This document shows, piece by piece, positions 162-64,000 of a stretch of DNA of 64,000 bases. The notes under the pieces were generated by a model. It had not been told where the DNA came from. It saw only the letters and a list, made by a program, of their open reading frames with translations, and did not search any database. The position numbers and the translations under genes are program-made. Location: IMG/VR virus record IMGVR_UViG_3300032093_000084, one strand, 5' to 3'. Within the stretch, counting starts at the first letter, position 1. Every line of letters begins with the position of its first letter. The DNA is from an uncultured virus (IMG/VR IMGVR_UViG_3300032093_000084). Lineage: Duplodnaviria; Heunggongvirae; Uroviricota; Caudoviricetes.

Positions 162-185
162 TTATAAGATAAAAAAATAAGAGAT

Positions 186-455
186 ATGACACACAAAGAG
201 TTTAAATTGACAGTTAAGAAAAACATTGTTGAAGATGCTGGTTATGGCAGAACGGCAGTGCATTACCGGGTAGGCGATACATTCACAGTTGATGAAGCAA
301 CGTTTGACAAATTGCAATCCGGAGCCACTATTGAGAGATACACACTAGAAGGTATAATCACACTTGACAAGTATAACTTTGAGAATGAAGTTCAAGTCAC
401 AACTATTACTATTGAGAATAGCACCCGCAAATTAGGACAACGTAAAAACAAATAA
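186..455 (+). CDS. Hypothetical early protein
   Basis: ORF downstream of early promoter with AAGAGAT-ATG start. Confidence 0.8.
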   Translation: MTHKEFKLTVKKNIVEDAGYGRTAVHYRVGDTFTVDEATFDKLQSGATIERYTLEGIITLDKYNFENEVQVTTITIENSTRKLGQRKNK

Positions 456-460
456 GAGTT

Positions 461-913
461 ATGAAAGAATCACAAATCATCCAACAAAGAATTGAGTCAT
501 TAGAAATTGACTTAGCAGAAGCACGCCAAGCGGTAGATGCAGTCAAGCGCGACGAAGCTGCAACCGGCACTAATGCAGAACGCAGAGAGTATGCCCAAGA
601 GTTGTATAGCAAGATCCTTGATCTCGAGTGTGATTCTGTAGACATAGAAAGTGATGCAGTAGATGTATTCATCGAGCGAGTGATTGATCCAGAGCACCGC
701 AAAGAGATTGCTGACGCATTATCCGGATCCGCATTTTTTGGATCTAGACCAATCATCCAAGTGTGCAATGATGCAACGGTTGATAAGATTATCTCGGTAT
801 TAGAAGCTTGTATTGATTATATTGACGACAATGGTGTATTGGATATGTGGGTTACGTATGATCCAGAGACTAATACCATTAAGCCGGAAGATGAAGATGA
901 AGAAGATGCATAA
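461..913 (+). CDS. Hypothetical acidic early protein
   Basis: 150 aa ORF, AAGAGTT-ATG start, N-terminal coiled coil. Confidence 0.8.
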   Translation: MKESQIIQQRIESLEIDLAEARQAVDAVKRDEAATGTNAERREYAQELYSKILDLECDSVDIESDAVDVFIERVIDPEHRKEIADALSGSAFFGSRPIIQVCNDATVDKIISVLEACIDYIDDNGVLDMWVTYDPETNTIKPEDEDEEDA

Positions 914-945
914 AAACATTTTATGAAACTTTTCGGAAAAAAGAT

Positions 946-976
946 TAGGATCTGAACATAAAAATGCTTATCTTTA
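946..976 (+). promoter_or_regulatory. Early promoter copy 2
   Basis: TAGGAT-17nt-TATCTTTA. Confidence 0.8.
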
Positions 977-998
977 AGTATATTAAAAAATAAGAGAT

Positions 999-1175
999 AT
1001 GACAAAAGCAGAACAAAGAGCAATTGCAAAGCAATTAAAAGAGAAAGTGAAGCAATCACAAGAGATGTTTGATGCACATTTTGCAAATCCAACGGATGCC
1101 AAAAGCCTTTCCTTTATAATTGGATTCCTTCAAGGCGCAATTAATTCCGCAACATTTGAGTTGGAACATTTCTGA
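999..1175 (+). CDS. Small hypothetical early protein (58 aa, not in ORF track)
   Basis: MTKAEQRAIAKQLKEK...ELEHF*, own promoter and AAGAGAT-ATG start. Confidence 0.8.
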   Translation: MTKAEQRAIAKQLKEKVKQSQEMFDAHFANPTDAKSLSFIIGFLQGAINSATFELEHF

Positions 1176-1194
1176 AAAAAAGTTTCAAAAAGAT

Positions 1195-1225
1195 TAGGAA
1201 CCGAACATTATTAACCTTATCTTTA
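1195..1225 (+). promoter_or_regulatory. Early promoter copy 3
   Basis: TAGGAA-17nt-TATCTTTA. Confidence 0.8.
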
Positions 1226-1279
1226 TATTAATAAGAGAAAGGGAATAGTCCCAAACCAAATTTGTAAATTGAGAGAGTT

Positions 1280-1678
1280 ATGAAAAAAGTAAATTTAGCA
1301 GACCAATTGAATGCATTTGCATCAGGCAAAATTATTGACAGCGCCGGAGACCAAAATGATTGTTTTAACTTTTATGATTGGTTCTGCAAGGATGCATCAT
1401 TGGAGCGCAAAGCAAATGCATTGTTCCCTAAGGTAAAAAAGTTCATTGCCGCAAATCCAGAGATTGACATTTTAAGCACATATGTGTTCTTTAAGAATAA
1501 TTGTCCGATGAATGGCCCATTGTATGATGATTTCCGTATATGCAATGCGGATGAAGTTTTATTCACAGTAATCCCTAAGTGCAGCCATTCCGGCAAAGCT
1601 GAAATATGGGGAAGAAATGATTCCGGCGTATTTGAATGCTTAAAACAAGCAGAAACATTTTCGAAACTTTTCTCCTAA
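1280..1678 (+). CDS. Hypothetical early protein
   Basis: 132 aa; FYDWFC and FKNNCPMNGPLYDDFRI motifs; GAGAGTT-ATG start. Confidence 0.8.
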   Translation: MKKVNLADQLNAFASGKIIDSAGDQNDCFNFYDWFCKDASLERKANALFPKVKKFIAANPEIDILSTYVFFKNNCPMNGPLYDDFRICNADEVLFTVIPKCSHSGKAEIWGRNDSGVFECLKQAETFSKLFS

Positions 1679-1683
1679 AAAAT

Positions 1684-1714
1684 TAGGTTCGCATTGAAAT
1701 AAACCTTAATTTTA
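1684..1714 (+). promoter_or_regulatory. Early promoter copy 4
   Basis: TAGGTT-17nt-TAATTTTA. Confidence 0.75.
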
Positions 1715-1736
1715 TATAAATTAAAAAATAAGAGAT

Positions 1737-1988
1737 ATGACAAAAGGATTTGAAAGATTTTGCGCAGTAGCTGGTACGAATGCGCAAGCAGCATTAGCTT
1801 CAGCAGTAGCCAAATTGACAAAAAATGGTTTGGAAGATGGCTTTGAAATTGAAGACATTATTGATTATTTAACTTATATGGTTGAAGTGGAAGCTGAGGT
1901 AGCGAAAGATGTACATGACGAGACATATTGGGCTGATGGCATTAACCAAGGCTTAGGATTGGATAATTTGAAAAGAAGGCACCAGTAA
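1737..1988 (+). CDS. Hypothetical early protein
   Basis: 83 aa, promoter plus AAGAGAT-ATG. Confidence 0.8.
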   Translation: MTKGFERFCAVAGTNAQAALASAVAKLTKNGLEDGFEIEDIIDYLTYMVEVEAEVAKDVHDETYWADGINQGLGLDNLKRRHQ

Positions 1989-2016
1989 AAAAGTTTAAAA
2001 AAAGTTTGCAAAAGAT

Positions 2017-2047
2017 TAGGATCGCATTAGATAATTCATTAAATTTA
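2017..2047 (+). promoter_or_regulatory. Early promoter copy 5
   Basis: TAGGAT-17nt-TAAATTTA. Confidence 0.75.
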
Positions 2048-2069
2048 TATAAATAAAAAAATAAGAGAT

Positions 2070-2261
2070 ATGGCTAAAGGCACAAAAAATTCCGGAAAGT
2101 TTCAGCAAGATGCAGTAGTAGGTCGCTTCATGGCAGACGCAAAGAAACCGCAAACGTTGAACGCAGTAGTTAAAGCAGCAATGGCGCAAGCAGAGCGAAA
2201 CAGAATCTATCGCGAAGCACAAGAAGCTAAAGCTAAGTTGAACCCACGCTTTGTTAAGTAA
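2070..2261 (+). CDS. Small basic hypothetical early protein
   Basis: 63 aa Lys/Ala-rich, AAGAGAT-ATG. Confidence 0.75.
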   Translation: MAKGTKNSGKFQQDAVVGRFMADAKKPQTLNAVVKAAMAQAERNRIYREAQEAKAKLNPRFVK

Positions 2262-2353: not shown

Positions 2354-2373
2354 CGAGTTATAAAAAAAGAGAG

Positions 2374-3114
2374 ATGGCAAAAAAGATTCACGTAAGTAAT
2401 GGAGCAATTGTAACCGATGTAGCAAGCACACGTCGTTATGTTAAAGAGATTAAAAAGACTCAAGGTCTTAGCAAAGAGCAAGAGAACCAGTTAGCAACCG
2501 AAGCGCAAGCCGGATCCCTTAAGTCCCGCAACAAGTTGGTAGAAGCCAATCTCAAGTTTGCTATCCAGGTAGCTCGTCAATATCAAGGCATGGGCATAGA
2601 GTTAGAAGACCTCATTGCATTTGCCAATATGGGTTTGCTTGAAGCAGTAGATCGCTTTGACACCACAAAGAATGTCAAGTTCATTACCTTCGCAGTATGG
2701 TATATCAGAGCCGAGTTGCAAAAGGCCCTCAATGATTTGTCTCGCACGGTTAGGATCCCTTCGCACCGTACCAAGACTGAAGAATACTCAACCAAAAGCA
2801 TTCATACTCCAGTAGGCGATGATGAGAACAAAGAGACATATGCAGACCGCTACTTAGAAGCTGAGGCTACACGCTCACGTAGAGACATTGATGACCTTCG
2901 CTTTGATTTGCAACGCGCGTTGAATCAGTTGCCTGAGAAGCAACGCGAAGCCATTACACGCTTTTATGGTATTGACCGCGAGTATGCTCAGTGCATGGAG
3001 CAGATTGCCGAAGAGCTAGATGTTACCGGCGAGCGTGCACGACAATTGGTTAGAGCAGCAGAGAAGACACTCAGCACTATGCAAGGCATTGAATTGCTAG
3101 AACAATATCTTTAA
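2374..3114 (+). CDS. RNA polymerase sigma-70 family factor (RpoD/SigA-like, Bacteroidetes type)
   Basis: Region 2 NLKFAIQVARQY..DLIAFANMGLLEAVDRFD..KFITFAVWYIR; region 4 HTH EQIAEELDVTGERARQL. Confidence 0.92.
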   Translation: MAKKIHVSNGAIVTDVASTRRYVKEIKKTQGLSKEQENQLATEAQAGSLKSRNKLVEANLKFAIQVARQYQGMGIELEDLIAFANMGLLEAVDRFDTTKNVKFITFAVWYIRAELQKALNDLSRTVRIPSHRTKTEEYSTKSIHTPVGDDENKETYADRYLEAEATRSRRDIDDLRFDLQRALNQLPEKQREAITRFYGIDREYAQCMEQIAEELDVTGERARQLVRAAEKTLSTMQGIELLEQYL

Positions 3115-3167
3115 TATATCCAGCATTATACATAAGAAACTTTTATGAAACTTTTTTGCTAAAAGAT

Positions 3168-3198
3168 TAGGATCGCATTGAAATAAACCTTAAATTTA
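3168..3198 (+). promoter_or_regulatory. Early promoter copy 6
   Basis: TAGGAT-17nt-TAAATTTA. Confidence 0.78.
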
Positions 3199-3221
3199 TA
3201 TATCATTAAAAAATAAGAGAT

Positions 3222-3353
3222 ATGAAAAAAGAAAATGTATTAGTAGTAGGATTAATTGGAGTAATGTTTGCAGGATTAATATTGGTAGCATTTGGCAATC
3301 CATTGGGAGCGTTCTTAGTAGCGGGAGTGATAATGATAGGTGCAGGATTGTAA
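3222..3353 (+). CDS. 43-aa two-TM membrane protein (not in ORF track)
   Basis: MKKENVLVVGLIGVMFAGLILVAFGNPLGAFLVAGVIMIGAGL*, own promoter and AAGAGAT-ATG. Confidence 0.75.
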   Translation: MKKENVLVVGLIGVMFAGLILVAFGNPLGAFLVAGVIMIGAGL

Positions 3354-3458: not shown

Positions 3459-3662
3459 ATGAAAGTATTTAAGTTTGAAGAAAGGATCCCGGCAACGGTT
3501 GTGCAATGCTATGAGGTAATTGCAGAGACTGAGGAAGAGGCATTGGCAATGGTACAAGATGGTTCCGGATTCCAAAGGGCCTATACATCTACTAATGGCT
3601 ATGGCGAGTTTGAATTGTTTGATACTGAAGAATTGCCAGATCTGGCAAATGATTTGCCATAG
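3459..3662 (+). CDS. Small hypothetical protein (YEVxAExxEEA motif)
   Basis: 67 aa; similar to 4237-4425. Confidence 0.75.
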   Translation: MKVFKFEERIPATVVQCYEVIAETEEEALAMVQDGSGFQRAYTSTNGYGEFELFDTEELPDLANDLP

Positions 3663-3693
3663 TAAAAAAGTTTAAAAAAAGTTTGCAAAAGAT

Positions 3694-3724
3694 TAGGATC
3701 GCATTGAAAAAGTCCTTATCTTTA
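3694..3724 (+). promoter_or_regulatory. Early promoter copy 7
   Basis: TAGGAT-17nt-TATCTTTA. Confidence 0.8.
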
Positions 3725-3771
3725 TTATAAGGAAATAAGGGAAATGGTTCCCGAATTAAAAAAAGAGAGTT

Positions 3772-4158
3772 ATGAAAAAAGAAAATTTGATTGGAAGATT
3801 AGAAGGAGCAAAGTTAATGTCATCACAAGTTGACATCGACAAAGTGATTGAGTTGATCAAGGCATTAGATGAGCCGCAAGCAGTAGGCCCAGTGTTTGAT
3901 GACTTATTAATTGAGCGCTTGAGTGAGGAGATTGAAAGTGCATTAGATTATAACTGCGGAGACTTGTTTGACACAGACACTGCAGAGTTCTCCCTAAACT
4001 ATAACAACCAAATTGAGTTGGAGCGTGTAGAGATTAATGTGCGCGAAGTGATGGAGCATGTGACAGCCAAGATGCAATTGGTGCTTGAGGCATTTGAGTT
4101 AGAAGCTGCAGATGAAGAGGCAGAAGCTGAAGAAGAAGGCACGCTCCGCGATGAATAA
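3772..4158 (+). CDS. Acidic hypothetical early protein
   Basis: 128 aa very Glu/Asp-rich. Confidence 0.8.
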   Translation: MKKENLIGRLEGAKLMSSQVDIDKVIELIKALDEPQAVGPVFDDLLIERLSEEIESALDYNCGDLFDTDTAEFSLNYNNQIELERVEINVREVMEHVTAKMQLVLEAFELEAADEEAEAEEEGTLRDE

Positions 4159-4236
4159 GACATCTAGATCTAGATAGGGATCCGTCCCCGGGCCAGCTCA
4201 AAAGGTTGGCCCATGCGGACGTGTAAAACGAGAGAT

Positions 4237-4425
4237 ATGACAAAGTACACAATTGTAAGACAAGTATTGGTAGAAGAGATCTATGAGGTGGTTGCTGAAT
4301 CATCCTTAGAAGCATTGACATTGGCAAAGGCAGGTACCGGCTTAAATGAATCCTTTATTGTGGATCCGGGAAGCTTCCGAATCGAAGGATTATCCCCGGG
4401 ATATTATCGAGTAAAAAAAGATTAA
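4237..4425 (+). CDS. Small hypothetical protein (YEVxAES motif); start reassigned from 4213
   Basis: GAGAGAT-ATG at 4237 matches the early start motif. Confidence 0.7.
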   Translation: MTKYTIVRQVLVEEIYEVVAESSLEALTLAKAGTGLNESFIVDPGSFRIEGLSPGYYRVKKD

Positions 4426-4442
4426 AAAAGTTCCTAAAAGAT

Positions 4443-4473
4443 TAGGTTAATTGAATAAAAATGCTTATCTTTA
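4443..4473 (+). promoter_or_regulatory. Early promoter copy 8
   Basis: TAGGTT-17nt-TATCTTTA. Confidence 0.78.
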
Positions 4474-4518
4474 TATAAGCAGAAAGGGAAAGGCCCAAGA
4501 CGCATTTTAATTTAAATC

Positions 4519-5478
4519 ATGAGAGAGATGATGAACAATGTTTTTGAACCAGTAAGAGTAAAAGGTAAGTTAATGGGTAAGAATGTGGCCACAGGCCAAT
4601 TCGCATCCAAGGATCAAATCCGACACATTCAATTGCTTAATGCAGAGAAGAACCGTGAGGTATTGTTTGTGTCAGCAACAGGTCGTGTTACACGAGTACC
4701 GGCAGCAGAAGCAGGAGTTGCAACGACTCCACCACCAGTAATGAAGTTATCATTCCTTCAAGCAAAAGAGTCGCAATGTCCGGAGGAGATGTTCCAGAAC
4801 ATTGAGCGACTCACTAAAATGGTAGGCCGCGGCATTCAACCATCCTTAGTAATTACAGGTGGCGCCGGCACTGGTAAGACTCACCTTGTAAAGAGTACAT
4901 TAGAAGGTATGGGCTTGACAGAGTCGACGGACTTCGTTCACTTCAAGGGTCGTGCTACCGCAGCCGGTTTGTTTGTTACCCTTTATGAGAACAGTGACAA
5001 GATTATTGTATTGGATGACTGCGATAGCGTGTTCAAGGATGACGATGCAGTGAATATCCTTAAGGGTGCTTTGGATAGCTATGACACACGCAAGATTAGT
5101 TACATCAGCACCAAGAGCCTCAAAGATGAATATGGCAGTGAAGTGCCGCGCCACTTTGAGTTCTCGGGTCGCATCATCTTCATCAGCAACATATCACAAA
5201 GCAAATTGGATGAGGCAATTCGCTCACGCAGCTTTGTAGCAGATGTAGAGTTGACTACCGAGCAAATGTTTACCAGAATGTCGCAGTTGGCAAACAAGAT
5301 GGAGTCACGCATTCCTCAAGCAGCCAAGGACCAGGCATTGGAATTGATGAAAGAATTGGATAAGGAGTTTGAAGGAGTAGAAGTTAACCTCCGTAGCTTT
5401 ATCAAGGCAGCACGCATTTGCGCAATGGGCTTTGACAATCCGAAGATGATGATTGCAGAACAAATCATCCCCGCATAG
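4519..5478 (+). CDS. AAA+ family ATPase (start may be 4528)
   Basis: Walker A GGAGTGKT, Walker B IIVLDDCD, sensor ISN, Arg finger AIRSRS. Confidence 0.85.
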   Translation: MREMMNNVFEPVRVKGKLMGKNVATGQFASKDQIRHIQLLNAEKNREVLFVSATGRVTRVPAAEAGVATTPPPVMKLSFLQAKESQCPEEMFQNIERLTKMVGRGIQPSLVITGGAGTGKTHLVKSTLEGMGLTESTDFVHFKGRATAAGLFVTLYENSDKIIVLDDCDSVFKDDDAVNILKGALDSYDTRKISYISTKSLKDEYGSEVPRHFEFSGRIIFISNISQSKLDEAIRSRSFVADVELTTEQMFTRMSQLANKMESRIPQAAKDQALELMKELDKEFEGVEVNLRSFIKAARICAMGFDNPKMMIAEQIIPA

Positions 5479-5500
5479 AAATCATATCTCTCAATATGAA

Positions 5501-5528
5501 GGATCCGGCATCGAAAGGTGTCGGATTC
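5501..5528 (+). terminator. 12-bp GAAA-tetraloop hairpin after ATPase gene (terminator or 3' stabiliser)
   Basis: GGATCCGGCATC-GAAA-GGTGTCGGATTC with G-U pairs; weak U-tract. Confidence 0.55.
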
Positions 5529-5565
5529 TACTGTAAAAAAAGTTTAAACAAAGTTGTCAAAAGAT

Positions 5566-5596
5566 TAGGATCCGAACATAATAAACCTTATCTTTA
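5566..5596 (+). promoter_or_regulatory. Early promoter copy 9
   Basis: TAGGAT-17nt-TATCTTTA. Confidence 0.8.
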
Positions 5597-5617
5597 TATA
5601 AATAAAAAGATAGAGAT

Positions 5618-5803
5618 ATGACAAAGAAAGAAATGATTGCAAAGATCCAAGAAGCAGAGCGCAAGGCTTGGGTATCGTATAATGATGCAAAGGAGCTTGC
5701 TGAAACGGATCGCTTCGGCACATTGGCTAACGAGTTAGAGAAACAATCCAGAACACGTTGGGCCACATTGTACGAGTTAATGAATGACTTAGAGATAGCA
5801 TAA
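5618..5803 (+). CDS. Hypothetical early protein
   Basis: 61 aa helical, AGAGAT-ATG. Confidence 0.75.
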   Translation: MTKKEMIAKIQEAERKAWVSYNDAKELAETDRFGTLANELEKQSRTRWATLYELMNDLEIA

Positions 5804-5858
5804 GCATAAAGAGTATAGAGTAAGTAAACCAAGTAACCAATAATAAAAACAAAGAGAT

Positions 5859-6059
5859 ATGGCAAACACAAAAGAGTTCATCCAAGTACAATTGAAAACA
5901 TTAGACAATGGCTTTGTAGCTACTCCAGAGACAAGAGACAACCTAGAAGCATTTGCCAGAGCCAACAACGGAAGCTCGGACATCGTCCTAATGCAAATGG
6001 CAATTCAATATGGCTACAAGCTAGCATTAGAGACAGTGTTAGAGACATTGCCCGAGTAG
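5859..6059 (+). CDS. Hypothetical early protein
   Basis: 66 aa, AAGAGAT-ATG. Confidence 0.75.
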   Translation: MANTKEFIQVQLKTLDNGFVATPETRDNLEAFARANNGSSDIVLMQMAIQYGYKLALETVLETLPE

Positions 6060-6369: not shown

Positions 6370-6377
6370 ATATTTAT
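6370..6377 (+). promoter_or_regulatory. Late promoter motif ATATTTAT
   Basis: First of about 22 intergenic copies oriented with the downstream gene (all listed in findings). Confidence 0.7.
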
Positions 6378-6740: not shown

Positions 6741-7277
6741 ATGATACGATTAAAAGACTTATTATCGGAAATTACATTGGGGAGCGTGACACCGTACGCG
6801 ACCCAATTTGTGTGGCAAGACAAATATCGAGATGGGGATATGTGGGAAGCTGATATCGCGGCCGATTCCCAGCCCATCAAACTAGTAATGCAACGTTGGA
6901 AAACCCCTATGCCAAATTTTGAATATGAATATCAATTTGCATTCTTTACTAGGGGACGAGACAATTCGGGCTGGTCAACCAGTGCAAGCAATACTGCGGC
7001 AACAGGCGGTTTAAACGTGCTTGCTCTGTTGAAAACAGTTGCACTTGCTATACGCGATTTTGCCGATCAAAATGCTAATGCTGATGTGATTGATGTTACT
7101 GGGGCTGATTCTGATTATGATAAAGGTGAACAAAAAAGTCGCATCTATCAAGCACTATTTGCGGAGAATGGAATGACGTCTGGATTTTCTATGAAATCAT
7201 ATGGCGGTAAATTATATTTAATAAAAACGGGCATCAACGGGCGTACCGCAGATGCAACAGGAGTAAGCAATGATTAA
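6741..7277 (+). CDS. Putative internal virion protein (MIRLKDLLSE leader); start reassigned from 6696
   Basis: ATG 6741 gives the shared 10-aa leader. Confidence 0.7.
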   Translation: MIRLKDLLSEITLGSVTPYATQFVWQDKYRDGDMWEADIAADSQPIKLVMQRWKTPMPNFEYEYQFAFFTRGRDNSGWSTSASNTAATGGLNVLALLKTVALAIRDFADQNANADVIDVTGADSDYDKGEQKSRIYQALFAENGMTSGFSMKSYGGKLYLIKTGINGRTADATGVSND

Positions 7278-8163: not shown

Positions 8164-8196
8164 TTTACAACGTACTAAGTTATTTACAACGTACTA
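8164..8196. repeat. 14-bp direct repeat TTTACAACGTACTA x2
   Basis: Copies at 8164-8177 and 8183-8196, abutting ATATTTAT at 8196. Confidence 0.8.
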
Positions 8197-8221
8197 TATT
8201 TATTTTATATAAAGGAAATAA

Positions 8222-8716
8222 ATGATTAAATTAGAAAAATTATTAGCTGAAAATATGCGTCGCTTTGGTACTAAAAATTTACGAGAAGGGGCAATGGCAT
8301 TCGAAGGCGATCCAATTTCTGGTCATCCATTCTTTGATCAAACAATTGTCGTAGATTTAGATGGTAAAAAAATGGAATTATTATTTTCAAATAAACCATA
8401 TGATATGACAGAAGTTGATGCATTAGCTTCAAAAGAAAATGCAAAATTACCAACATTTGGACAACTAGATTCGTTAAGTAACTTAGTAATGCCAGGATAT
8501 ACTGTTGGGACTATTTGGTATGAAATGTCATATGACTCAGAAATGGAAAATTATGCAATGGAACGATTCCGTTTATATGACTTATCAAATAAATCAGATG
8601 TACAAGTAGTAGTACCAAATATGCTTAGAAAAATAGAATCAGATGCATTAGTATTATTAAGGCCAGCAGATGCTGATTATATAATGTATATCAATAAAAA
8701 GGAAACGAATGATTAA
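8222..8716 (+). CDS. Hypothetical protein carrying both leader types
   Basis: MIKLEKLLAE-NMRRFGTKNLRE. Confidence 0.75.
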   Translation: MIKLEKLLAENMRRFGTKNLREGAMAFEGDPISGHPFFDQTIVVDLDGKKMELLFSNKPYDMTEVDALASKENAKLPTFGQLDSLSNLVMPGYTVGTIWYEMSYDSEMENYAMERFRLYDLSNKSDVQVVVPNMLRKIESDALVLLRPADADYIMYINKKETND

Positions 8717-9436: not shown

Positions 9437-10683
9437 TTAAATTAAAACACATATTAGAACAACGTGGTAATGAACACCCGAAACAGATTCTGTTTATTAC
9501 AGACTATGATATTAATAGAAACTGGCATGTTTTTAGACGTTTACTTAGATCGCAAAATATCACAGGAATCTTTAGATATTATAAAGAAGAAGATTCATCA
9601 GAAATGGTAAATCTATTACATTATAATATAACTAAATCATATGATTTTGTAATATTACAAATTAGTGGTTTAAAAGATAAAAATTCAAATTTAGCAATAC
9701 AAAATTATAAAAGAGCTATACGTTTATGTCAAGATAATGATGTTCCATTAATTATTGTAGCTCCGCCATATCCTAAATTTGCAAAAGAATTAGATCGAAA
9801 TAAAGATTTATTATATTTTGAACGTATCGATGCATGGTTACATGGTGTCGAATCGGATAATCTCATGATGATCGATTTATCTGAATTAGATGATGATGTT
9901 TATTTTGCAAAAAATGGTATTGATTTAAGTAAAACTGGTAATGATGTAATTTATCAAGAACTTATACAATTAATTGATTCATATTCAGAAGAGCCCGAAG
10001 AAATTGAACCGGTGATTGAACCAGAAGAGGAACCAGAAGAGGAACCGAAACCTATTATATTAAAACAATTATTAAAAGGTCATGTTGAAATTGTTGGTAA
10101 TGTTACTAGAGAACAGGAAGATAATATTAAATTAATGATTCAATATATGAATGATTCTGATATAACAGATCCTGTAGCTCAAATTGGAATATTATCTGTA
10201 ATAGGAAAAGAGAGTGATTATGTTCCTCAGACTGAAATAGGTTATGCAACTACACCAAATGATCGTATACAAACTAAATTTAGTAAAACACGTACGTTAA
10301 CGGATGAAGAATTAGATGAATTAAAACAAGATGATGAAGATTTCTTTAATTTTGTTTATGGCGGCCGCTTTGAAAATGAAGACGATGAAGGTTATTTATA
10401 TCGCGGTAGAGGATTCAACCAATTAACATTCAAATCTAATTATCGTATATATGGCAAAAAAGTTAGAAAAAATTTAGTAGCTGATCCAGATCTTGTAAAT
10501 GAACCAGACATTGCAGCAGCAGTAGCTGTTGAATTCTTCACAAAAGGTGCACCGGTACCTGAATTCAAATCTATATCTGACGCAGTTACATATTTTACTA
10601 ATTTAAATGCGGGTGGTGAAGCTGATAGTGAAAATCATGGTAGCGCCCAACGTTATTCAAAACTATTTAAAATAGTACCATAA
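9433..10683 (+). CDS. SGNH-like N-terminal domain fused to GH19 chitinase/lysozyme-like domain
   Basis: C-terminal KES..E and YRGRGFNQLTFKSNY GH19 motif; N-terminal degenerate SGNH blocks; EP-rich linker. Confidence 0.75.
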   Translation: MIKLKHILEQRGNEHPKQILFITDYDINRNWHVFRRLLRSQNITGIFRYYKEEDSSEMVNLLHYNITKSYDFVILQISGLKDKNSNLAIQNYKRAIRLCQDNDVPLIIVAPPYPKFAKELDRNKDLLYFERIDAWLHGVESDNLMMIDLSELDDDVYFAKNGIDLSKTGNDVIYQELIQLIDSYSEEPEEIEPVIEPEEEPEEEPKPIILKQLLKGHVEIVGNVTREQEDNIKLMIQYMNDSDITDPVAQIGILSVIGKESDYVPQTEIGYATTPNDRIQTKFSKTRTLTDEELDELKQDDEDFFNFVYGGRFENEDDEGYLYRGRGFNQLTFKSNYRIYGKKVRKNLVADPDLVNEPDIAAAVAVEFFTKGAPVPEFKSISDAVTYFTNLNAGGEADSENHGSAQRYSKLFKIVP

Positions 10684-10707
10684 TATTTATATTAAAAAAA
10701 GGATACG

Positions 10708-11803: not shown

Positions 11804-11841
11804 TCTAAATATTTATAATAAAATAAAAAAAAAAGGTTTTT

Positions 11842-14494: not shown

Positions 14495-14512
14495 TAAAAT
14501 AAAGGGCCTATC

Positions 14513-51450: not shown

Positions 51451-51478
51451 TATATTTATATTAAAATTGGATAATAAA

Positions 51479-55322: not shown

Positions 55323-55370
55323 TAGCCATGGTTCTGTAACAAGTTATATTTATTATAAAATATTATTATT

Positions 55371-57209: not shown

Positions 57210-57252
57210 AAGTAAACATATTTATTTAATATAAAAAGAACTGTGTAACAAA

Positions 57253-58101
57253 ATGACTAAATTGAAACATTCGAAATATAAGAACACTGGCATTCTTTTT
57301 GAACTGTTAGTTAGAAAATTAACATCAGAAACATTATCTTCAGATAAATCAGTTACTATTGATATAATTAAAAAATACTTCGGTAAAAATACAGAACTAG
57401 CTAAAGAATTACAATTATATAATTCTTTATTAAAAGAACAATTCCGCAGCGAAGCTCAAGCATTAGATTATATTCGTACTATTAAATCAACTCATAACAA
57501 ATTGAATCATTCTTTACTAAGACGTCAGCGATATAATTTAGTTAAAGAAATTTCAGAAAAATTTATTTTTGCAAATATGGCTAAAGCTCATATTAACAAT
57601 TATAAAAGTTTAGCTTCAATTTATATGATTTTTGAATATGACGAATCTTCTAATCCTAAACAATTATTAGAATGTAAAAATGTAATCATTAAAAATAATA
57701 TGATGGTTGAAAAACGAGTTGAAATAAAAGATCCACTCATTGAAGCATTTGAATCACAGCCAAAAGATATTAGATTATTAACATATAAATTAATGATTGA
57801 TAAATTCAATGATAAGTATTCCGTTTTAGACGAATCACAAAAACGTTTATTGAATAAATATATTATTAATGTTAATGATACTGAAGCATTAAAAGAATAT
57901 ATTGAAAAGATTATTCCTCAAATTAAAAATGAATTATCGATTCAAGCAAAAGTAATCTCTGATAAAGCAACACAAATTAAAGTTCAAAAACTTTCAGAAA
58001 TGCTTTGTACTGTTGAAAATATGAAAACAATTAAAGAATCTCACGTACTTTCATTATTACGTTATTTTGATTTAATTAAAGAATTGAAAGGTTTGCATTA
58101 A
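57253..58101 (+). CDS. Head-module hypothetical protein
   Basis: KHSKYKNTGILFELL; between portal and protease. Confidence 0.75.
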   Translation: MTKLKHSKYKNTGILFELLVRKLTSETLSSDKSVTIDIIKKYFGKNTELAKELQLYNSLLKEQFRSEAQALDYIRTIKSTHNKLNHSLLRRQRYNLVKEISEKFIFANMAKAHINNYKSLASIYMIFEYDESSNPKQLLECKNVIIKNNMMVEKRVEIKDPLIEAFESQPKDIRLLTYKLMIDKFNDKYSVLDESQKRLLNKYIINVNDTEALKEYIEKIIPQIKNELSIQAKVISDKATQIKVQKLSEMLCTVENMKTIKESHVLSLLRYFDLIKELKGLH

Positions 58102-58568
58102 TGAGATCGCTTTTGAAAGAAATGGAAGAAAAATTCATAGAAATTGAAGAAGAATTAGCATCTGAAGAACAAGATTCTGATTTAGAAGAACAAAATGTAA
58201 CTAGTGCAATAGCTGGTTATAATACTCCAAAAGCCTTTGCAAAGAAACCTAATAAAAAAACTGCAGAACAATTGGGTTATAAAATAGTTCAAGAAGCAAT
58301 GGATGAAAAATATGAAAAGCTAATAGAAAGCTATAGCGATTTTAAAAAAATTGGAGATAAAAAACCTTCGATGCATATTAAAGATTCTATCAGAGAGATT
58401 GCTAAAAAATTACAAGAAATTGAAACAATTGTAAATCATACATCAAAATATAAGAATGAATCTGGTATTGCATCTTCACAATACGGTCCAGCTGCAGGAA
58501 AAGCAATGACAAAAATTGCCGAACGATTAACTAGAATATCAGAACGTGTAAGAGCATTAGGGGAGTAA
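58101..58568 (+). CDS. Putative prohead core protein
   Basis: Acidic N-terminus with LxE sites, GYNTPKAF. Confidence 0.6.
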   Translation: MRSLLKEMEEKFIEIEEELASEEQDSDLEEQNVTSAIAGYNTPKAFAKKPNKKTAEQLGYKIVQEAMDEKYEKLIESYSDFKKIGDKKPSMHIKDSIREIAKKLQEIETIVNHTSKYKNESGIASSQYGPAAGKAMTKIAERLTRISERVRALGE

Positions 58569-58569
58569 T

Positions 58570-59202
58570 ATGTCAAAGAATTTAATTGTAGAATACATAC
58601 CATTTAAGCCAGTTGGTTCATTAACTGAGCAAAGTGGTGCTGCATATGGAATTCCAGGCGGCTTTGTTGTTCAAGGAGTTTTACAGAGAGCTGGCGCAAA
58701 AAATCAAAACGGACGAGTATATCCTAAACATATTCTAGAAAGAGAGTGCCAACGTTATCAAAAAGAATATATTGATCAACATCGTGCATTAGGCGAATTA
58801 GATCACCCAGAATCATCAATTGTTAACTTAAATAATGTTTCGCATAATGTTTTAAAAATTTGGTGGAATGGTGATGATTTATTAGGAGCTGTTCAAATTT
58901 TAGAAACACCATCTGGCAAGATTTTAAAAGAATTATTTAAAGCGGGTATTACATTAGGTATTTCGTCTCGAGGTTTAGGATCAGTCAAAGAATTACGTAG
59001 TGAAGGCGTAGTCGAAGTTCAAGAAGATTTTGAATTAATATGTTGGGACTTCGTTTCTAATCCTTCTACACATGGGGCTTTTATGCGGCCTACGAGCATG
59101 AATGAATCTGCGAATAAAAGTATTCAATTAAATAAATATAATAAAGTAAACGACATCATTACATCAATTTTATGCGAAGATGGTAAATGTAGGATAATAT
59201 AA
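58570..59202 (+). CDS. Prohead protease (gp21-like)
   Basis: NQNGRVYP, GELDHP, VSH, TPSGKIL, GISSRGLG, DFVSNPS. Confidence 0.95.
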   Translation: MSKNLIVEYIPFKPVGSLTEQSGAAYGIPGGFVVQGVLQRAGAKNQNGRVYPKHILERECQRYQKEYIDQHRALGELDHPESSIVNLNNVSHNVLKIWWNGDDLLGAVQILETPSGKILKELFKAGITLGISSRGLGSVKELRSEGVVEVQEDFELICWDFVSNPSTHGAFMRPTSMNESANKSIQLNKYNKVNDIITSILCEDGKCRII

Positions 59203-60104: not shown

Positions 60105-60350
60105 ATGAATAAAAAACAAAAACAACACCAAACTACGGTAGCAGGAAATCCATTAGCAGTTAATGTAATTGGTTCTGCAAGAGAAGATTTAGCATTTGCA
60201 TTGAAAGCTTGGAAACGTAAAGTAAAAGCATCAGGTATTTTAGAACGAGTTAAAGATCTCAAAGAATTTGAAAAACCTAGTGTAACAAAACGAAAACAAC
60301 TTCAAGCAGCACAATTTATTCAAAAAATTAGAAGTGCAAATCAAGATTAA
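60105..60350 (+). CDS. rpsU: Phage-encoded ribosomal protein bS21
   Basis: DL..ALK.WKRK...SGIL..VK....FEKPSVTKR S21 signature. Confidence 0.85.
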   Translation: MNKKQKQHQTTVAGNPLAVNVIGSAREDLAFALKAWKRKVKASGILERVKDLKEFEKPSVTKRKQLQAAQFIQKIRSANQD

Positions 60351-60432: not shown

Positions 60433-60534
60433 TTGTAAATACGCTATCTCTTATATAGTGTCTAGTATTTATAAACTTTCTATTAAGATTCATAATAATC
60501 TTATTTCCAAAACAAAAATTTAAGGAGAAAAACG

Positions 60535-61566: not shown

Positions 61567-61587
61567 CATTAAAAAAAAAGGAAAATC

Positions 61588-63234
61588 GTGAGTATTTCAA
61601 ATTTATTACAAACAAACGATTTCGTACAACGCAACCAAGCTAAAGCGTTGGCATCGAAATGGGAAAAGACCGGTCTATTAGAAGGTCTTCGTGGCGAAAC
61701 CGAAAAAGCAGGTATGGCCCAATTGCTTGAGAACCAAGCACGTCAATTAGTAAAAGAAGCTTCTTCAACTGGTACATCAGCTGGTTCAGAAGAGTGGGCA
61801 GGTGTAGCTCTTCCATTGGTACGTCGTATCTTTGCTGAGTTTGCTGCTAAAGAATTCGTTTCAGTTCAACCAATGAACTTGCCATCAGGTCTTATTTTTT
61901 ACTTAGACTTTAAATATGGTACAGCTCAACCAGGATTTGACGCTGACAATCTTAACCGTACAGGTGATCCATTTGGTTCTCCAAATGCTGATGATTCAAT
62001 GTTTGGTGTAACAACAACTTCAGGTGATCCATCGGGTGGTCTTTATGGTGCAGGTCGTTTTGGTTATTCAATCAACGAAACAGCTAGCATTGTTTCTGCA
62101 GCAACTGGTTCTCAACCAACAGCCGCACAAGTAAATGGTGATTCTACATATTCTGGTTCATCTGATTATAAAATGATAACAGTAAATGTACCTACGGAAG
62201 CAGATTTATATGCAGTTCGTTCATTTATTCTTCGTTCTGGTTCAGCTCAAACTAATATCGTACCAGTTCAAGCATTTTCATCAATTGACAGCAATTACAC
62301 TGCATCATTTGTTGTAACAACTACTCAAGCAGCTGCAATTTCATCTTCAATTGGTGCTGGTAATTTGCGTTTAGTATATAGCAAACAACCAACTGATATT
62401 ACACGTGGTGATTTTGAAGACAACAAAGGTGCATTCTCTAACGGATACAATACTGATATTGATATTCCAGAAATTAACCTTGAAATGCAATCTGAGCCAA
62501 TCGTTGCTAAGACTCGTAAGTTGAAAGCAGTTTGGACTCCTGAATTTGCTCAAGACTTAAATGCATACCATTCAATTGATGCTGAAGCTGAATTGACTTC
62601 AATGTTGTCTGAGTATGTATCTATGGAGATCGACTTAGAGATCTTAGATATGTTGATTGCAGCAGCTCCTACAACTGAGTATTGGTCAGCTCGTAACAAT
62701 ACAATTTGGAATGGTACTTCATTTACAACTTTAGCAGCTGGTACAGCTACTCCAGGATTAGGTGATGGATTCTACAACACTCAAGGTGGTTGGTTCCAAA
62801 CTTTAGGTACTAAACTTCAAAAAGTATCTAATAAAATTCACCAAAAAACATTGCGTGGCGGTGCTAACTTCTTAGTAACATCTCCTGCAGTTGCAACTAT
62901 CCTTGAGTCTATCCCAGGATTTGCTGCTGACACAGATGGTACTAAAATGGAATTTGCGGCAGGTGTACAAAAAATTGGTTCAATCAATAACCGTTACACT
63001 GTATACAAAAACCCATACATGTTAGAAAACGTAATCTTAATGGGATTCCGTGGTGCACAGTTCCTTGAAACAGGTGCTGTATTTAGCCCTTATATTCCTT
63101 TGATTATGACACCGCTTGTATATGATCCGATTAACTTCACTCCACGTAAAGGTGTTATGACACGTTACGCGAAGAAAGTAGTTCGTCCAGAATTCTACGG
63201 AAAAGTATACGTACACGGTCTTAACACTCTTTAA
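61588..63234 (+). CDS. Major capsid protein (gp23-like)
   Basis: KW...GLLEG, LLENQ, PLVRR, VQPMNLPSGLIF, AKTRKLKA.WT.E.AQDL...H..DAE.EL, TRY; GTG start. Confidence 0.96.
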   Translation: MSISNLLQTNDFVQRNQAKALASKWEKTGLLEGLRGETEKAGMAQLLENQARQLVKEASSTGTSAGSEEWAGVALPLVRRIFAEFAAKEFVSVQPMNLPSGLIFYLDFKYGTAQPGFDADNLNRTGDPFGSPNADDSMFGVTTTSGDPSGGLYGAGRFGYSINETASIVSAATGSQPTAAQVNGDSTYSGSSDYKMITVNVPTEADLYAVRSFILRSGSAQTNIVPVQAFSSIDSNYTASFVVTTTQAAAISSSIGAGNLRLVYSKQPTDITRGDFEDNKGAFSNGYNTDIDIPEINLEMQSEPIVAKTRKLKAVWTPEFAQDLNAYHSIDAEAELTSMLSEYVSMEIDLEILDMLIAAAPTTEYWSARNNTIWNGTSFTTLAAGTATPGLGDGFYNTQGGWFQTLGTKLQKVSNKIHQKTLRGGANFLVTSPAVATILESIPGFAADTDGTKMEFAAGVQKIGSINNRYTVYKNPYMLENVILMGFRGAQFLETGAVFSPYIPLIMTPLVYDPINFTPRKGVMTRYAKKVVRPEFYGKVYVHGLNTL

Positions 63235-63283
63235 TCGTTAATTTGATTTAATCATTTAACCAATTAATTAGTTAAGGTAAAAT

Positions 63284-63313
63284 AAGAGAGGGTGGCTTCG
63301 GTCACCCTTTCTT
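63284..63313 (+). terminator. Terminator after major capsid gene
   Basis: AAGAGAGGGTGGC-TTCG-GTCACCCTTTCTT. Confidence 0.85.
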
Positions 63314-63345
63314 ACTATTCGAATATTTATATTAAAATAAAGATC

Positions 63346-63621
63346 ATGGCAGTAGAAAGACACAAATATTCAATGCAAGCGATAATCAGATATGATGGTC
63401 GTTTAGTAGATGTTCTAGATCGTATACGAGCTATACGTTTAGTATTAATGGTACATATCGAACAAGACTTAGGCCCAGATAAAGAATTAGTTACTATTAA
63501 AGTGATGACTGCATATCCTCCTAGAGAAACATATCATGCAATTAGAAAAATAGGTTTAGGAAAAATAGAAACCCTTAAAGATATGACGCTTCAAGAATCT
63601 ACACTTACAAAATTGTTTTAA
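63346..63621 (+). CDS. Hypothetical late protein; start reassigned from 63292
   Basis: ATG after ATATTTAT at 63323. Confidence 0.7.
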   Translation: MAVERHKYSMQAIIRYDGRLVDVLDRIRAIRLVLMVHIEQDLGPDKELVTIKVMTAYPPRETYHAIRKIGLGKIETLKDMTLQESTLTKLF

Positions 63622-63637
63622 ATTAATTAAGGTTGTT

Positions 63638-64000
63638 ATGGCTACACAAAATCGGGAAAAAACTCCACCGAAAACTGATATTAAGTTTTCAATTACACTA
63701 TCAGAAGAACAAAAACAAGCAAAAGCAAAAATTATAGAAACCCCATTTAATTTTATTCTAGGAAAAGCGGGTTCGGGTAAAACATTATTAGCAGTTCAAA
63801 TTGCGTTAGATATGTTTTTTAAAAGACAAATCAATAAGATTATTATAACAAGACCCACTGTATCAAATGAAGATAACGGATTTCTTCCTGGTTCATTGGC
63901 AGAAAAAATGGATCCGTGGTTAGTTCCTTTACGTAGTAATATGCGTAAAGTATATAATAAACCAGAGATTCTAGATAAAATGGAAAAAGAAGAAAATATT
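63638..64000 (+). CDS. phoH: PhoH-like ATPase (partial, runs off window)
   Basis: LSEEQ, GKAGSGKT, IIITRP, GFLPG..EKMDPW. Confidence 0.92.
   Translation, partial: MATQNREKTPPKTDIKFSITLSEEQKQAKAKIIETPFNFILGKAGSGKTLLAVQIALDMFFKRQINKIIITRPTVSNEDNGFLPGSLAEKMDPWLVPLRSNMRKVYNKPEILDKMEKEENI

Follow-up and report, generated by a model that had tools for sequence, protein, structure and literature searches.

Two kinds of translation start region in a T4-like phage that encodes ribosomal protein bS21

Among ribosomal proteins, bS21 is the one that phages encode most often. Phage T4 controls early messages through RegA and RegB, and masks the translation starts of certain transcripts (gene e, soc, 49 and I-TevI), which are paired in read-through RNA and free in RNA from a proximal promoter. 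Ribosomes of the Bacteroidia hold the tail of 16S rRNA in a pocket of bS21, bS18 and bS6, and Shine-Dalgarno (SD) sites are ignored (Jha 2021, PMC7797042). In Flavobacterium johnsoniae, the tail is directed into the pocket by Tyr54 of bS21, which stacks on A1534; conservation of the pocket residues throughout the class has been reported (PMC7797042). A single mismatch in the SD of rpsU mRNA is enough to defeat wild-type F. johnsoniae ribosomes, whereas bS21-deltaC ribosomes do initiate on it (Naeem 2026, PMC13000453; McNutt 2023, PMC9976891), and McNutt et al. speculate on exchange with phage bS21 (PMC9976891). The bS21 of myoviruses that infect Bacteroidetes has been proposed to substitute into host ribosomes and to favour phage messages late in infection (Chen et al. 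2022, PMC9723584). For the basic N-terminal extensions of phage S21 proteins, a part in binding to the ribosome or in selecting phage mRNA has been proposed (Al-Shayeb et al., bioRxiv 10.1101/572362). The subject of this analysis is a 64,000-nucleotide stretch (the window) of the uncultured virus IMGVR_UViG_3300032093_000084 (IMG/VR; Caudoviricetes), about 40% of the genome of a T4-like myovirus of roughly 160 kb, which encodes a bS21 and whose genes appear to fall into two classes by promoter and translation start region: early genes in which AGAG(A/T)(T/G) abuts the AUG, and other genes, many of which have a short SD-like site. The labels "early" and "late" are taken from promoter type and gene content.

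An earlier note on the window had set AGAG(A/T)T at early starts against AAGG upstream of late starts, and its coordinates, early and late, were all correct: AAGG is present at all 14 late starts that it named, separated from the start codon by 5-6 nt, or by 9 nt in the case of 60535. Those 14 are only part of the SD-like set. When SD-like sites are defined as AAGG, AGGA, GGAG or GAGG ending 4-10 nt before the start, they precede 23 of the 66 non-early starts of the window, compared to 2 of 66 for a mock window 24-30 nt upstream (Fisher p = 2.7e-6), and none of the 14 early starts (mock window also 0/14; early versus rest, p = 0.0077). The corresponding counts in Flavobacterium phage immuto, the nearest cultured relative (capsid identity 57.5%), are 3/115 for non-early starts (mock 12/115) and 0/23 for early starts (mock 2/23). 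The outcome that the earlier note named as refuting, no enrichment of AAGG over shuffled sequence, is not seen, with AAGG at spacers of 4-7 nt before 15 of the 66 non-early starts, versus 1.66 when their upstream 30-mers are shuffled with dinucleotides preserved (maximum 8; none of 2000 shuffles reached 15) and 0.87 with mononucleotide shuffling. Among ATG triplets of the + strand that are not starts, 19 of 1296 (1.5%) have AAGG at this distance. By spacer, AAGG occurs twice at 0-3 nt, 15 times at 4-7, four times at 8-11, once at 12-15 and not at all at 16-23, and a count of AAGG-N5/6-RTG across the whole window, ignoring genes, finds a modest enrichment (20 versus 10.9 and 18 versus 11.3). 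The sites cluster on virion genes, and the six genes at 41738-49418 have none. Because 15 of the 23 sites are internal to operons, with no ATATTTAT box within 50 nt, the SD-like site is not part of a promoter, and AAGG as a piece of the ATATTTAT promoter or of its transcription start site was rejected as an explanation.

Relatives make the character of the site clearer. In 617 unique start regions from 50 head loci that bear bS21, the frequency of G peaks at 0.33 at position -9, compared to approximately 0.10 elsewhere, which is also the position of the G peak in Escherichia coli (Baez 2019, PMC6847099), and SD k-mers are confined to spacers of 5-10 nt. The main k-mers are AAAGGA (76), AAAGG (43), AGGAG (39) and AAGGAG (34), and rarer, longer forms follow the 16S complement (AAAGGAG, AGGAGGT, up to AAAGGAGGTG). 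AAAGGA, AAGGAG and the longer forms match the complement of the tail ACCUCCUUUCU, which is that of F. johnsoniae and may not be that of the host; its letters are those of the residues that PMC7797042 names, except U1540, which we supplied. Judged by its sequence and position, the late motif behaves as a short SD site, complementary to 5'-UCCUUU-3' of this assumed tail. By calculated pairing energy the sites are weak: only three start regions of the window are at or below -7 kcal/mol, the level that Jha et al. called strong, host rpsU being below -13 kcal/mol (PMC9976891). Since published biochemistry has replete Bacteroidia ribosomes unable to use SD sites as weak as these, sites of 4-7 nt should matter only when the pocket is open.

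Retention of the site, counted gene by gene on the unique start regions of relatives, is uneven. It is highest at the gene starting at 60535 (38/39), the major capsid protein (46/49), 59202 (14/15), 58101 (17/21), the prohead protease (25/32) and PhoH (24/40), and it is close to nil at the large terminase (1/12), portal (0/21), 52368 (0/11), 57253 (1/29) and bS21 itself (0/40). The start regions of the window read AAAGGAAAAUC-AUG for the capsid gene and AAGGAGAAAAACG-AUG for 60535, and among relatives the intergenic spacer before the capsid gene changes in length and sequence around a conserved AAGGA.

The genes outside the early block have a promoter-like element of their own: ATATTTAT(A/T)(A/T) boxes lie 22-36 nt ahead of about 18 starts, a motif shared with immuto, and the sigma-70 family factor encoded in the early block is a candidate reader of them. 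The division into two classes that the earlier note made is upheld, but its label "late" is too narrow, because ATATTTAT boxes also head replication genes that have no SD-like site, so that "late" is better taken as "not early". Six starts were picked with knowledge of the motifs rather than as the longest open reading frame (ORF), namely 4237, 4528, 19295 and 22818 by the earlier note and 51479 and 63346 by the promoter box in the present analysis. The longest ORFs at the latter two begin at TTG 51467 (51467-52354) and GTG 63292 (63292-63621), ahead of the ATATTTAT box; the true starts are probably ATG 51479 and ATG 63346, and relatives align from 63346.

In the early block, AGAG(A/T)T directly abuts the ATG at 186, 461, 999, 1280, 1737, 2070, 3222, 3772, 4237, 5618 and 5859, and AGAGAG does so at 2374, 4528 and 19295, as the earlier note had it. 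AGAGWKATG occurs 15 times in the window, compared to a mean of 1.95 (sd 1.32, maximum 5) in 100 dinucleotide-preserving shuffles; 14 of the matches are on the + strand at ORF starts, and the fifteenth is on the - strand at 5483-5491. The motif is present at 13 of the 14 starts called in 186-5859, the exception being 3459 (AATAGAT), and also at 19295, a CAP-domain gene with an upstream region of the early type. A repeat search found nine copies of a cassette of 75-100 nt in 111-5620 and 11 copies of a 32-nt start-region family in the window. The cassette consists of AAAAGATTAGG, followed 19 nt on by TATCTTTA, TAAATTTA or TAATTTTA, then by a further 21-24 nt that are A-rich and free of C, and then by AGAG(A/T)(T/G)ATG; an example of an early start region is AAUAAGAGAU-AUG. 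When scored on the nearly invariant positions of the Bacteroidia -7 element (T-12, A-11, T-8, T-7, T-6 and G-5; PMC6847099), TATCTTTA, TAAATTTA and TAATTTTA match five of six, with A in place of G at -5. The early box is promoter-like, but on these letters it would be no strict member of the Bacteroidia primary promoter (-33 TTTG, -7 TAHHTTTG); host transcription would be of the Bacteroidia type, Flavobacterium-like. Transcription in F. johnsoniae begins 4-5 nt past the -7 element (PMC6847099), and if this rule applies to the host, early leaders would be approximately 18 nt long. At three early genes the leader is longer (1236-1263, 3735-3760 and 4481-4508): the usual start ATAAGAGAAAGGG enters a short GC hairpin (GGGAATAGTCCC etc.), and a second GAGAG start region follows the hairpin, at 1280, 3772 and 4528. 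Among relatives the short form and the hairpin form of the leader alternate at the same gene.

Two ways in which the early motif might itself pair with 16S rRNA were considered and rejected. Chryseobacterium-like Flavobacteriales have an alternative anti-SD, 5'-UCUCA-3' (PMC9976891), but a role for GAGA as its SD was set aside because GAGAU (complement AUCUC) abuts the AUG without a spacer and because the late sites fit the canonical CCUCC tail. Pairing of AGAG(AG) with the extreme 3' end of the tail, CUUUCU, would comprise at most six pairs (-2.4 to -6.5 kcal/mol), and was rejected because its geometry is approximately 11 nt out of register and the nucleotides in question are held by bS6 and bS18.

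The early loci of 29 relatives, gathered through the AAA ATPase gene, contain 214 copies of the exact early pattern on the gene strand and 43 on the opposite one (not deduplicated). The 469 unique start regions around the AAA gene include 181 behind an early box, of which 149 have AGAG or GAGA within -12..-1 and 93 have AGAG exactly at -6..-3, and the box ends 22-24 nt ahead of the ATG in 105. The consensus of the 181 reads AGAGAT from -6 to -1, at frequencies of 0.82, 0.71, 0.75, 0.60, 0.83 and 0.71 in that order, preceded by A at 0.84-0.91 from -13 to -10, with C at most 0.04 at -24 to -3 and at -1, and 0.08 at -2. Against the Kozak-like pattern of Bacteroidia, which calls for A at -3, -6, -12 and -13, A reaches 0.91 at -12, 0.88 at -13 and 0.82 at -6, but at -3 it is only 0.27, G being 0.60. 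The two classes separate in the same 29 loci, counting unique starts: of 197 starts behind an early box, five are SD-like (mock 4) and 152 have AGAG or GAGA within -12..-1, and of 40 starts behind a ATATTTAT box, 25 are SD-like (mock 1) and one has AGAG or GAGA there. Variants of the motif are AAGAGAA and AGAGAGTAAA in the relative G004/L085 and AAAGAAT in the distant complete genome G005; immuto has AAAACA-N6-9-ATG at its early starts, often ending in GTT.

The window does encode bS21, as the earlier note had claimed (PF01165, 36.5 bits versus a cut-off of 27). The best solved relatives of the protein are the Bacteroidota bS21 chains 9i5v_9 and 7jil_z, and 195 clusters of relatives (E at most 1e-5) exist in public data, of which the 120 listed are all 80-81 residues long. 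In the window sequence F71 occupies the position of F. johnsoniae Tyr54, and I72 that of Ile55. In 49 unique sequences from 54 syntenic loci, the Tyr54 position is aromatic in all 49 (F in 24, Y in 25), and 43 have I, M or L at the Ile55 position. A69 and R63 never vary, 48 sequences have Q73, and the basic extension MNKKQKQHQ.. is conserved. In 40 of 40 start regions of relatives the gene begins in a conserved context, AAGTTAT-ATG, that has no SD; the context recurs at gene 52368 and may be a third type of start context. A second kind of bS21, which lacks the aromatic residue and in most cases the MNKKQKQ extension as well, is found in six more distant relatives (L069, L072, L079, L202, L203 and L204), most of which carry GGAG before most head genes, L203 having almost none. 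A search for bS18 and bS6 genes in three near-complete relatives found none, with a control that matched in 10 of 14 genomes.

SD-like sites were compared among head regions with and without bS21. From 161 head-region records (80 around the capsid gene of the window, 79 around that of immuto, and the window and immuto themselves), we kept the 101 that have five or more ORFs and 3 kb or more of sequence ahead of the capsid gene, and bS21 was detected by an iterated profile. In the 64 loci with bS21, SD-like sites precede 502 of 1052 starts (mock 28) and are present in 48 of 53 capsid start regions; in the 37 loci without bS21, they precede 37 of 556 starts (mock 40) and are present in none of 35 capsid start regions. 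Two complete genomes that have the same kind of early promoter box and no bS21 lack the sites, namely immuto and G005 (197 kb; 2 of 36 head-region starts SD-like), and bS21-free relatives with this kind of box show neither the early nor the late signal. One locus with bS21, L023, is poor in sites. The association between bS21 and SD-like sites is suggestive at the level of sequence, with two concordant contrasts and one clear counterexample (L203). The idea of the earlier note that late translation may run on ribosomes remodelled by the phage bS21 is partly supported: its two premises, the start classes and the gene, hold, and the causal step has correlative support only.

The reading that would best account for these observations, to which we assign a probability of about 0.4, is that the two gene classes differ in promoter and translation start region in the following way, with bS21 as the candidate that releases the anti-SD. 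The first class would comprise 14 small genes at 186-6059 and the gene at 19295, nine of them behind a host-type cassette (-33-like TTAGG, -7-like TAHHTTTA), with a purine-only leader of approximately 18 nt, free of C, that has A at -14 to -10 and closes with AGAG(A/T)(T/G) on the AUG, and no SD; the motif would be an SD-independent start context for unmodified host ribosomes, probably under selection because it persists at orthologues with or without the cassette, and may double at least once as the target of RNA pairing described below. The second class would comprise all other genes, behind ATATTTAT(A/T)(A/T) boxes that are probably read with the phage sigma factor (2374-3114), with A-rich leaders, 23 of 66 of which have AAAGGA or AAGGAG or a part of these 4-10 nt before the start. 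SD sites appear to be kept on proteins made in bulk (capsid, the protein before the capsid, protease, baseplate) and to be absent from terminase, portal, replication genes and bS21 itself; they would pay only on ribosomes whose anti-SD has been freed in infected cells, and the most plausible candidate for freeing it is the phage bS21, whose gene belongs to the head operon. If so, the phage itself would be the best internal control, as its early genes, read by unmodified host ribosomes, are without SD sites. A further-reaching version, in which the extended bS21 replaces host bS21 late in infection so that AAAGGA is read, while AGAGAU-AUG is used by unmodified ribosomes only or is silenced by RNA pairing, is held with low confidence.

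Several observations weigh against this reading. The capsid tree (quick IQ-TREE, 77 rows) places the bS21-negative loci in one clade (SH-aLRT 99), so that the trait needs one change, and FastTree with 40 picked representatives plus G005 (41 rows) requires a minimum of two; with one or two changes of the trait, the concordant loci amount to one or two independent contrasts. L203 has a bS21, one without the aromatic residue, yet only 1 of its 19 starts is SD-like, and three bS21-negative loci have at least 25% SD-like starts (L132, 5/13; L170, 2/8; L198, 3/10). The genes that the phage bS21 would serve lie in one late operon with it, and 43 of the 66 genes of the second class are without an SD-like site. 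The temporal classes rest on sequence, and contigs from RNA libraries cannot show transcript starts; the early box matches the host -7 element at five of six positions, with A for G at -5, the early leader has G rather than the favoured A at -3 (Baez 2019), and the 16S tail used is that of F. johnsoniae, which may not be the host's. The one piece of sequence evidence that opposes the simplest form of the interpretation is that the phage bS21 looks like a locking rather than an unlocking protein, since the aromatic residue at the Tyr54 position, A69 and Q73 are kept; if it does open the pocket, the N-terminal extension would, speculatively, be the place to look. On balance the observation of the earlier note is confirmed and extended, and its interpretation is a reasonable, testable hypothesis with correlative support.

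The early motif has an exact complement in the window, 5 nt past the stop codon of the AAA ATPase gene: the sequence CATATCTCTCAA (called anti-TIR, for translation initiation region) is the reverse complement of TTGAGAGAT-ATG and stands single-stranded before a hairpin of 13 bp, conserved in relatives, in which 5 of 13 pairs have compensatory changes. ATCTCT or CTCTCT occupies the place of the anti-TIR in 13 of 24 relatives, with variants in the others, and in an alignment of 18 sequences the TCTC core is invariant and the flanks vary. In the predicted fold of the read-through RNA (5476-5632), 5482-5491 pair with the next start region, 5612-5621, at -38.3 kcal/mol compared to -19.5 ± 3.3 for shuffles (z = -5.7), and of 22 relatives in which the distance to the next ORF exceeds 100 nt, 15 show pairing of the 35 nt that follow the stop with 7 or more of the 12 positions -8..+4 of the next start region. 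The anti-TIR is predicted to mask the start of the next gene in read-through RNA; RNA begun at the promoter within the cassette would not contain the masking strand.

It is somewhat unlikely that the early motif is mainly an address for shut-off, by an antisense RNA such as the anti-TIR or by a protein of the RegA/RegB kind, instead of an enhancer, a possibility that is compatible with any reading of the late sites. The motif is exclusive to the early class and has a conserved exact complement, but masking in cis needs no action in trans. The anti-TIR could act in trans on all early messages, and with the hairpin it could be the 3' part of a small regulatory RNA. Its predicted duplexes with early start regions are stronger (mean -12.8 kcal/mol, 13/15 at or below -10) than those with other start regions (mean -4.8 kcal/mol, 1/61), but this contrast follows by construction from the complementarity. 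There are only one or two copies of the anti-TIR per genome, the second, ahead of a different gene, being found in G002 and G004. PF01818 and PF10715 (RegA and RegB) matched none of three near-complete relatives, in a search that is uninformative because its control was silent in all 14 genomes.

It is unlikely that the late sites are real SDs that work independently of the phage bS21, being read by host ribosomes that lack bS21 or by ribosomes stripped of it by another phage function, in which case the phage bS21 might keep ribosomes replete without the host's autoregulated rpsU. Occupancy in wild-type F. johnsoniae is approximately 0.8, and bS21-free ribosomes favour SD-led mRNA (PMC13000453, PMC9976891); the locking residues are kept in the phage protein, and its gene has an SD in none of 40 start regions of relatives whereas the SD of host rpsU is very strong. 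This explanation does not predict the absence of sites in relatives without bS21, and the published gain is for very strong SDs only, below -13 kcal/mol (PMC9976891).

It is less likely still that the early motif is functionless and merely carried in mobile promoter cassettes, of the PeSL kind, that recombination keeps uniform. The cassette is present in nine copies and the 32-nt start-region family in 11, and gene content between cassettes varies among relatives. Contigs from RNA libraries (six runs with small parts of 1-10000, four of which were examined) cover pieces of the sigma factor gene, the AAA gene and others; such contigs hold no information on transcript start, strand or timing, and may come from DNA carry-over. 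Some of them join cassette to cassette and omit the genes between (1180 to 1676, 2013 to 4457 and 977 to 5536), which is what gain and loss of genes at the cassettes in related strains would produce, but the joints are weak evidence because the flanks are short (21-56 nt). The motif is not mere cassette cargo, as it stands directly at the ATG of four genes that have no cassette (461, 2374, 4237 and 5859) and three that have long hairpin leaders (1280, 3772 and 4528). The sigma factor, AAA and other early orthologues of relatives likewise retain GAGAG at the ATG with a cassette, without one or behind a hairpin leader, and its retention in changing surroundings argues for selection on the start region itself.

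A difference of hosts, by which the bS21 clade would infect bacteria that read SDs and the bS21-free clades bacteria that are blind to them, with bS21 incidental, is distinctly improbable. One or two events on the tree could be explained by a host shift, and L069, L072 and L079 have GGAG before most genes together with a generic bS21 that lacks the aromatic residue; but early genes are SD-like at 0 of 14 starts in the window and 5 of 197 in relatives, the early box is of the same kind as in immuto, which has a Flavobacterium host, and in G005, the bS21 of the clade is of the Bacteroidia type, and the pocket residues are reported to be conserved throughout that class (PMC7797042). The most improbable explanation is that AAGG or AGGA acts away from the anti-SD, as the site of an RNA-binding protein or as a stability or processing signal on abundant late messages: most sites are only 4-6 nt long and PhoH orthologues alternate AAGGTTAT with AAAGTTAT, but the longer forms extend along the 16S complement (AAAGGAG, AGGAGGT, AAAGGAGGTG) and the position profile equals that of SD sites.

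The head and baseplate genes of the window are of the T4 type and include those for portal protein Gp20, prohead protease, capsid protein Gp23, large terminase and baseplate wedge proteins (gp25-like and gp6-like), and it also encodes a primase and an SbcCD-like nuclease. An Hc1-type histone-like protein (PF07432, 54.7 bits) and a DUF4494 protein are encoded at 11842-12027 and 12901-13110. Apart from immuto, there are many uncultured relatives at 75-91% capsid identity, including three near-complete genomes of approximately 159 kb. The G+C content is 0.36-0.43 within the first 8 kb and 0.28-0.35 thereafter. Runs of G and C at 6060-6330 end the early block (GGGGGGTGTAATAGCCCCCC followed by T7, then GGGGCAGCCCCCCC and CCCCCCCTAAAACAGGGGGGTGGGGGAGGG), and GGGGGGGTGGGGAGGGTTTCGTTAAG in the relative L105 resembles them; the stretch may be a terminator or a module boundary, and folding of the G/C-rich part 6055-6200 is no better than that of shuffles (z = 0.14). 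A search of the window found no tRNA genes, an Rfam scan of the whole window gave no match at the gathering score, megablast of 29146-36585 versus phage records gave no match, and a scan of genome contigs with the UvdE protein found no relative; host start statistics were taken from the literature. Coordinates of the features are collected in Table 1.

Table 1. Genes, start motifs, promoter-like elements and RNA elements of the window (spacers are counted from the end of the site to the start codon).
Feature	Position	Strand	Start	Remarks
bS21 gene	60105..60350	+		81 aa; 17-residue basic N-terminal extension; own start without SD
Sigma-70 family factor	2374..3114	+		regions 1.2, 2, 4; early class
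AAA ATPase gene	4528..5478	+		early class
Major capsid protein, Gp23 family	61588..63234	+
Head-module protein, 343 aa	60535..61566	+		family unassigned; directly ahead of capsid gene
SD-like AGGAG	7259..7263	+	7270	spacer 6
SD-like AAAGGA	8211..8216	+	8222	spacer 5
SD-like AAAGGA	8698..8703	+	8709	spacer 5
SD-like AAAGGA	10698..10703	+	10708	spacer 4
SD-like AAAGG	11832..11836	+	11842	spacer 5; Hc1-like
SD-like AAAGG	14501..14505	+	14513	spacer 7
SD-like AAGGA	21644..21648	-	21639	spacer 4
SD-like AAAGG	22808..22812	+	22818	spacer 5
SD-like AGGA	24849..24852	+	24860	spacer 7
SD-like AAAGGA	25865..25870	+	25880	spacer 9
SD-like AAAGGA	26302..26307	+	26313	spacer 5
SD-like AAGGA	28688..28692	+	28697	spacer 4; gp25-like baseplate wedge
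SD-like AAGGA	29136..29140	+	29146	spacer 5; baseplate wedge
SD-like AAGGA	31025..31029	+	31035	spacer 5
SD-like AAGG	36622..36625	+	36636	spacer 10
SD-like AAAGG	37303..37307	+	37313	spacer 5
SD-like AAAGG	53331..53335	+	53342	spacer 6; kept in only 1/15 TIRs of relatives
SD-like GAAAGG	58086..58091	+	58101	spacer 9
SD-like GGAG	58562..58565	+	58570	spacer 4; within TAGGGGAG; prohead protease
SD-like AGGA	59191..59194	+	59202	spacer 7
SD-like AAGGAG	60522..60527	+	60535	spacer 7
SD-like AAAGGA	61577..61582	+	61588	spacer 5; major capsid protein
SD-like AAGG	63629..63632	+	63638	spacer 5; PhoH
ATATTTAT box	6370..6377	+	6401	31 nt before start
ATATTTAT box	8196..8203	+	8222
ATATTTAT box	10683..10690	+	10708
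ATATTTAT box	11809..11816	+	11842
ATATTTAT box	14485..14492	+	14513
ATATTTAT box	19192..19199	-	19163
ATATTTAT box	21668..21675	-	21639
ATATTTAT box	22769..22776	+	22818
ATATTTAT box	25853..25860	+	25880
ATATTTAT box	28173..28180	+	28195
ATATTTAT box	36607..36614	+	36636
ATATTTAT box	38661..38668	+	38696
ATATTTAT box	40819..40826	+	40847	also heads replication/repair genes
ATATTTAT box	46474..46481	+	46501
ATATTTAT box	49420..49427	+	49444
ATATTTAT box	51452..51459	+	51479	start then not TTG 51467
ATATTTAT box	55346..55353	+	55371	portal gene
ATATTTAT box	57218..57225	+	57253
ATATTTAT box	63323..63330	+	63346	start then not GTG 63292
Early cassette	111..185	+		-33-like TTAGG, -7-like TATCTTTA; before ORF 186-455
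Early cassette	926..1000	+		before ORF 999-1175
Early cassette	1162..1239	+		long leader with hairpin GGGAATAGTCCC; before ORF 1280-1678
Early cassette	1651..1738	+		before ORF 1737-1988
Early cassette	1984..2071	+		before ORF 2070-2261
Early cassette	3135..3222	+		before ORF 3222-3353
Early cassette	3661..3748	+		long leader with hairpin; before ORF 3772-4158
Early cassette	4410..4487	+		long leader with hairpin; before ORF 4528-5478
Early cassette	5533..5620	+		before ORF 5618-5803
AGAGAT-ATG	180..188	+
AGAGTT-ATG	455..463	+		no cassette; TAA of preceding gene inside motif
AGAGAT-ATG	993..1001	+
AGAGTT-ATG	1274..1282	+		long leader
AGAGAT-ATG	1731..1739	+
AGAGAT-ATG	2064..2072	+
AGAGAG-ATG	2368..2376	+		sigma factor gene; no cassette
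AGAGAT-ATG	3216..3224	+
AGAGTT-ATG	3766..3774	+		long leader
AGAGAT-ATG	4231..4239	+		no cassette
AGAGAG-ATG	4522..4530	+		AAA ATPase gene; long leader
AGAGAT-ATG	5612..5620	+		predicted partner of anti-TIR in read-through RNA
AGAGAT-ATG	5853..5861	+		no cassette
AGAGAG-ATG	19289..19297	+		CAP-domain gene; early-type unit beyond early block
Anti-TIR CATATCTCTCAA	5483..5494	+		5 nt past stop of AAA gene
Conserved 13-bp hairpin	5500..5529	+		follows anti-TIR

Short SD sites are kept on proteins made in bulk and not on early genes, despite host ribosomes that are known to ignore SDs, and the clade thereby suggests a concrete, if fallible, assay for the role of phage bS21. If the further-reaching version, with late replacement of host bS21, is true, the phage would time protein synthesis at initiation and give priority to bulk virion proteins, and a viral ribosomal protein would re-tune which messages the ribosome accepts. 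The early motif and its conserved complement would be a second, testable layer of control over start sites, and in phages of this kind they also serve as a working rule by which gene starts can be called and temporal classes assigned.

The predicted masking by the anti-TIR is like that of T4 in that pairing ties up the start region in the long RNA but not in the proximal RNA, and in that a start-region motif is specific to the early class. In this phage, however, what does the masking is itself conserved and complements a motif common to the early class as a whole. The cassettes themselves resemble the PeSL units of T4-type phages, in which strong early promoters are repeated between small, non-essential genes of a plastic region (Arbiol et al. 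2010, PMC2839356); they differ in having a Bacteroidia-type promoter rather than a sigma-70 promoter and in including a fixed start-codon context, and the likeness to PeSL units, which hold a stem-loop terminator, rests on the promoter repeats, the hairpin examined here being that at 5500-5529. The early starts are like the Kozak-like starts of Bacteroidia in lacking an SD, in having A at -12/-13 and -6, and in the shortness and lack of structure of the leader, and unlike them in having G at -3 and -5 and a predicted leader of approximately 18 nt, compared to a host mean of 33 nt (Baez 2019, PMC6847099). Substitution of a phage bS21 that favours late messages is already in print (PMC9723584; PMC9976891); the literature searched contains no report of SD sites on virion genes in such phages, of a start motif specific to the early class, or of an anti-TIR, and the accessible passages of PMC9723584 contain neither late-gene SD sites nor an early start motif, the words "UTR" (untranslated region) and "promoter" being absent from the text. 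As in the phages of Chen et al. (2022), bS21 lies in the head block beside terminase, portal, protease and capsid genes and has an aromatic residue at the Tyr54 position, but it is on the same strand as the head genes, whereas theirs is on the reverse strand (PMC9723584). Compared to the phages of Al-Shayeb et al. (bioRxiv 10.1101/572362), the extension here is a fixed segment of 17 residues, MNKKQKQHQ.., across 49 unique sequences of one clade. The mechanism would resemble that of the bS21-gated anti-SD of F. johnsoniae, where an SD counts only when bS21 or its C-terminal part is missing (Jha 2021, PMC7797042; PMC9976891; PMC13000453); the cellular target there is a single gene, rpsU, with an SD of 9-13 bp, whereas the phage has sites of 4-7 nt at many genes and a bS21 that keeps the locking residues.

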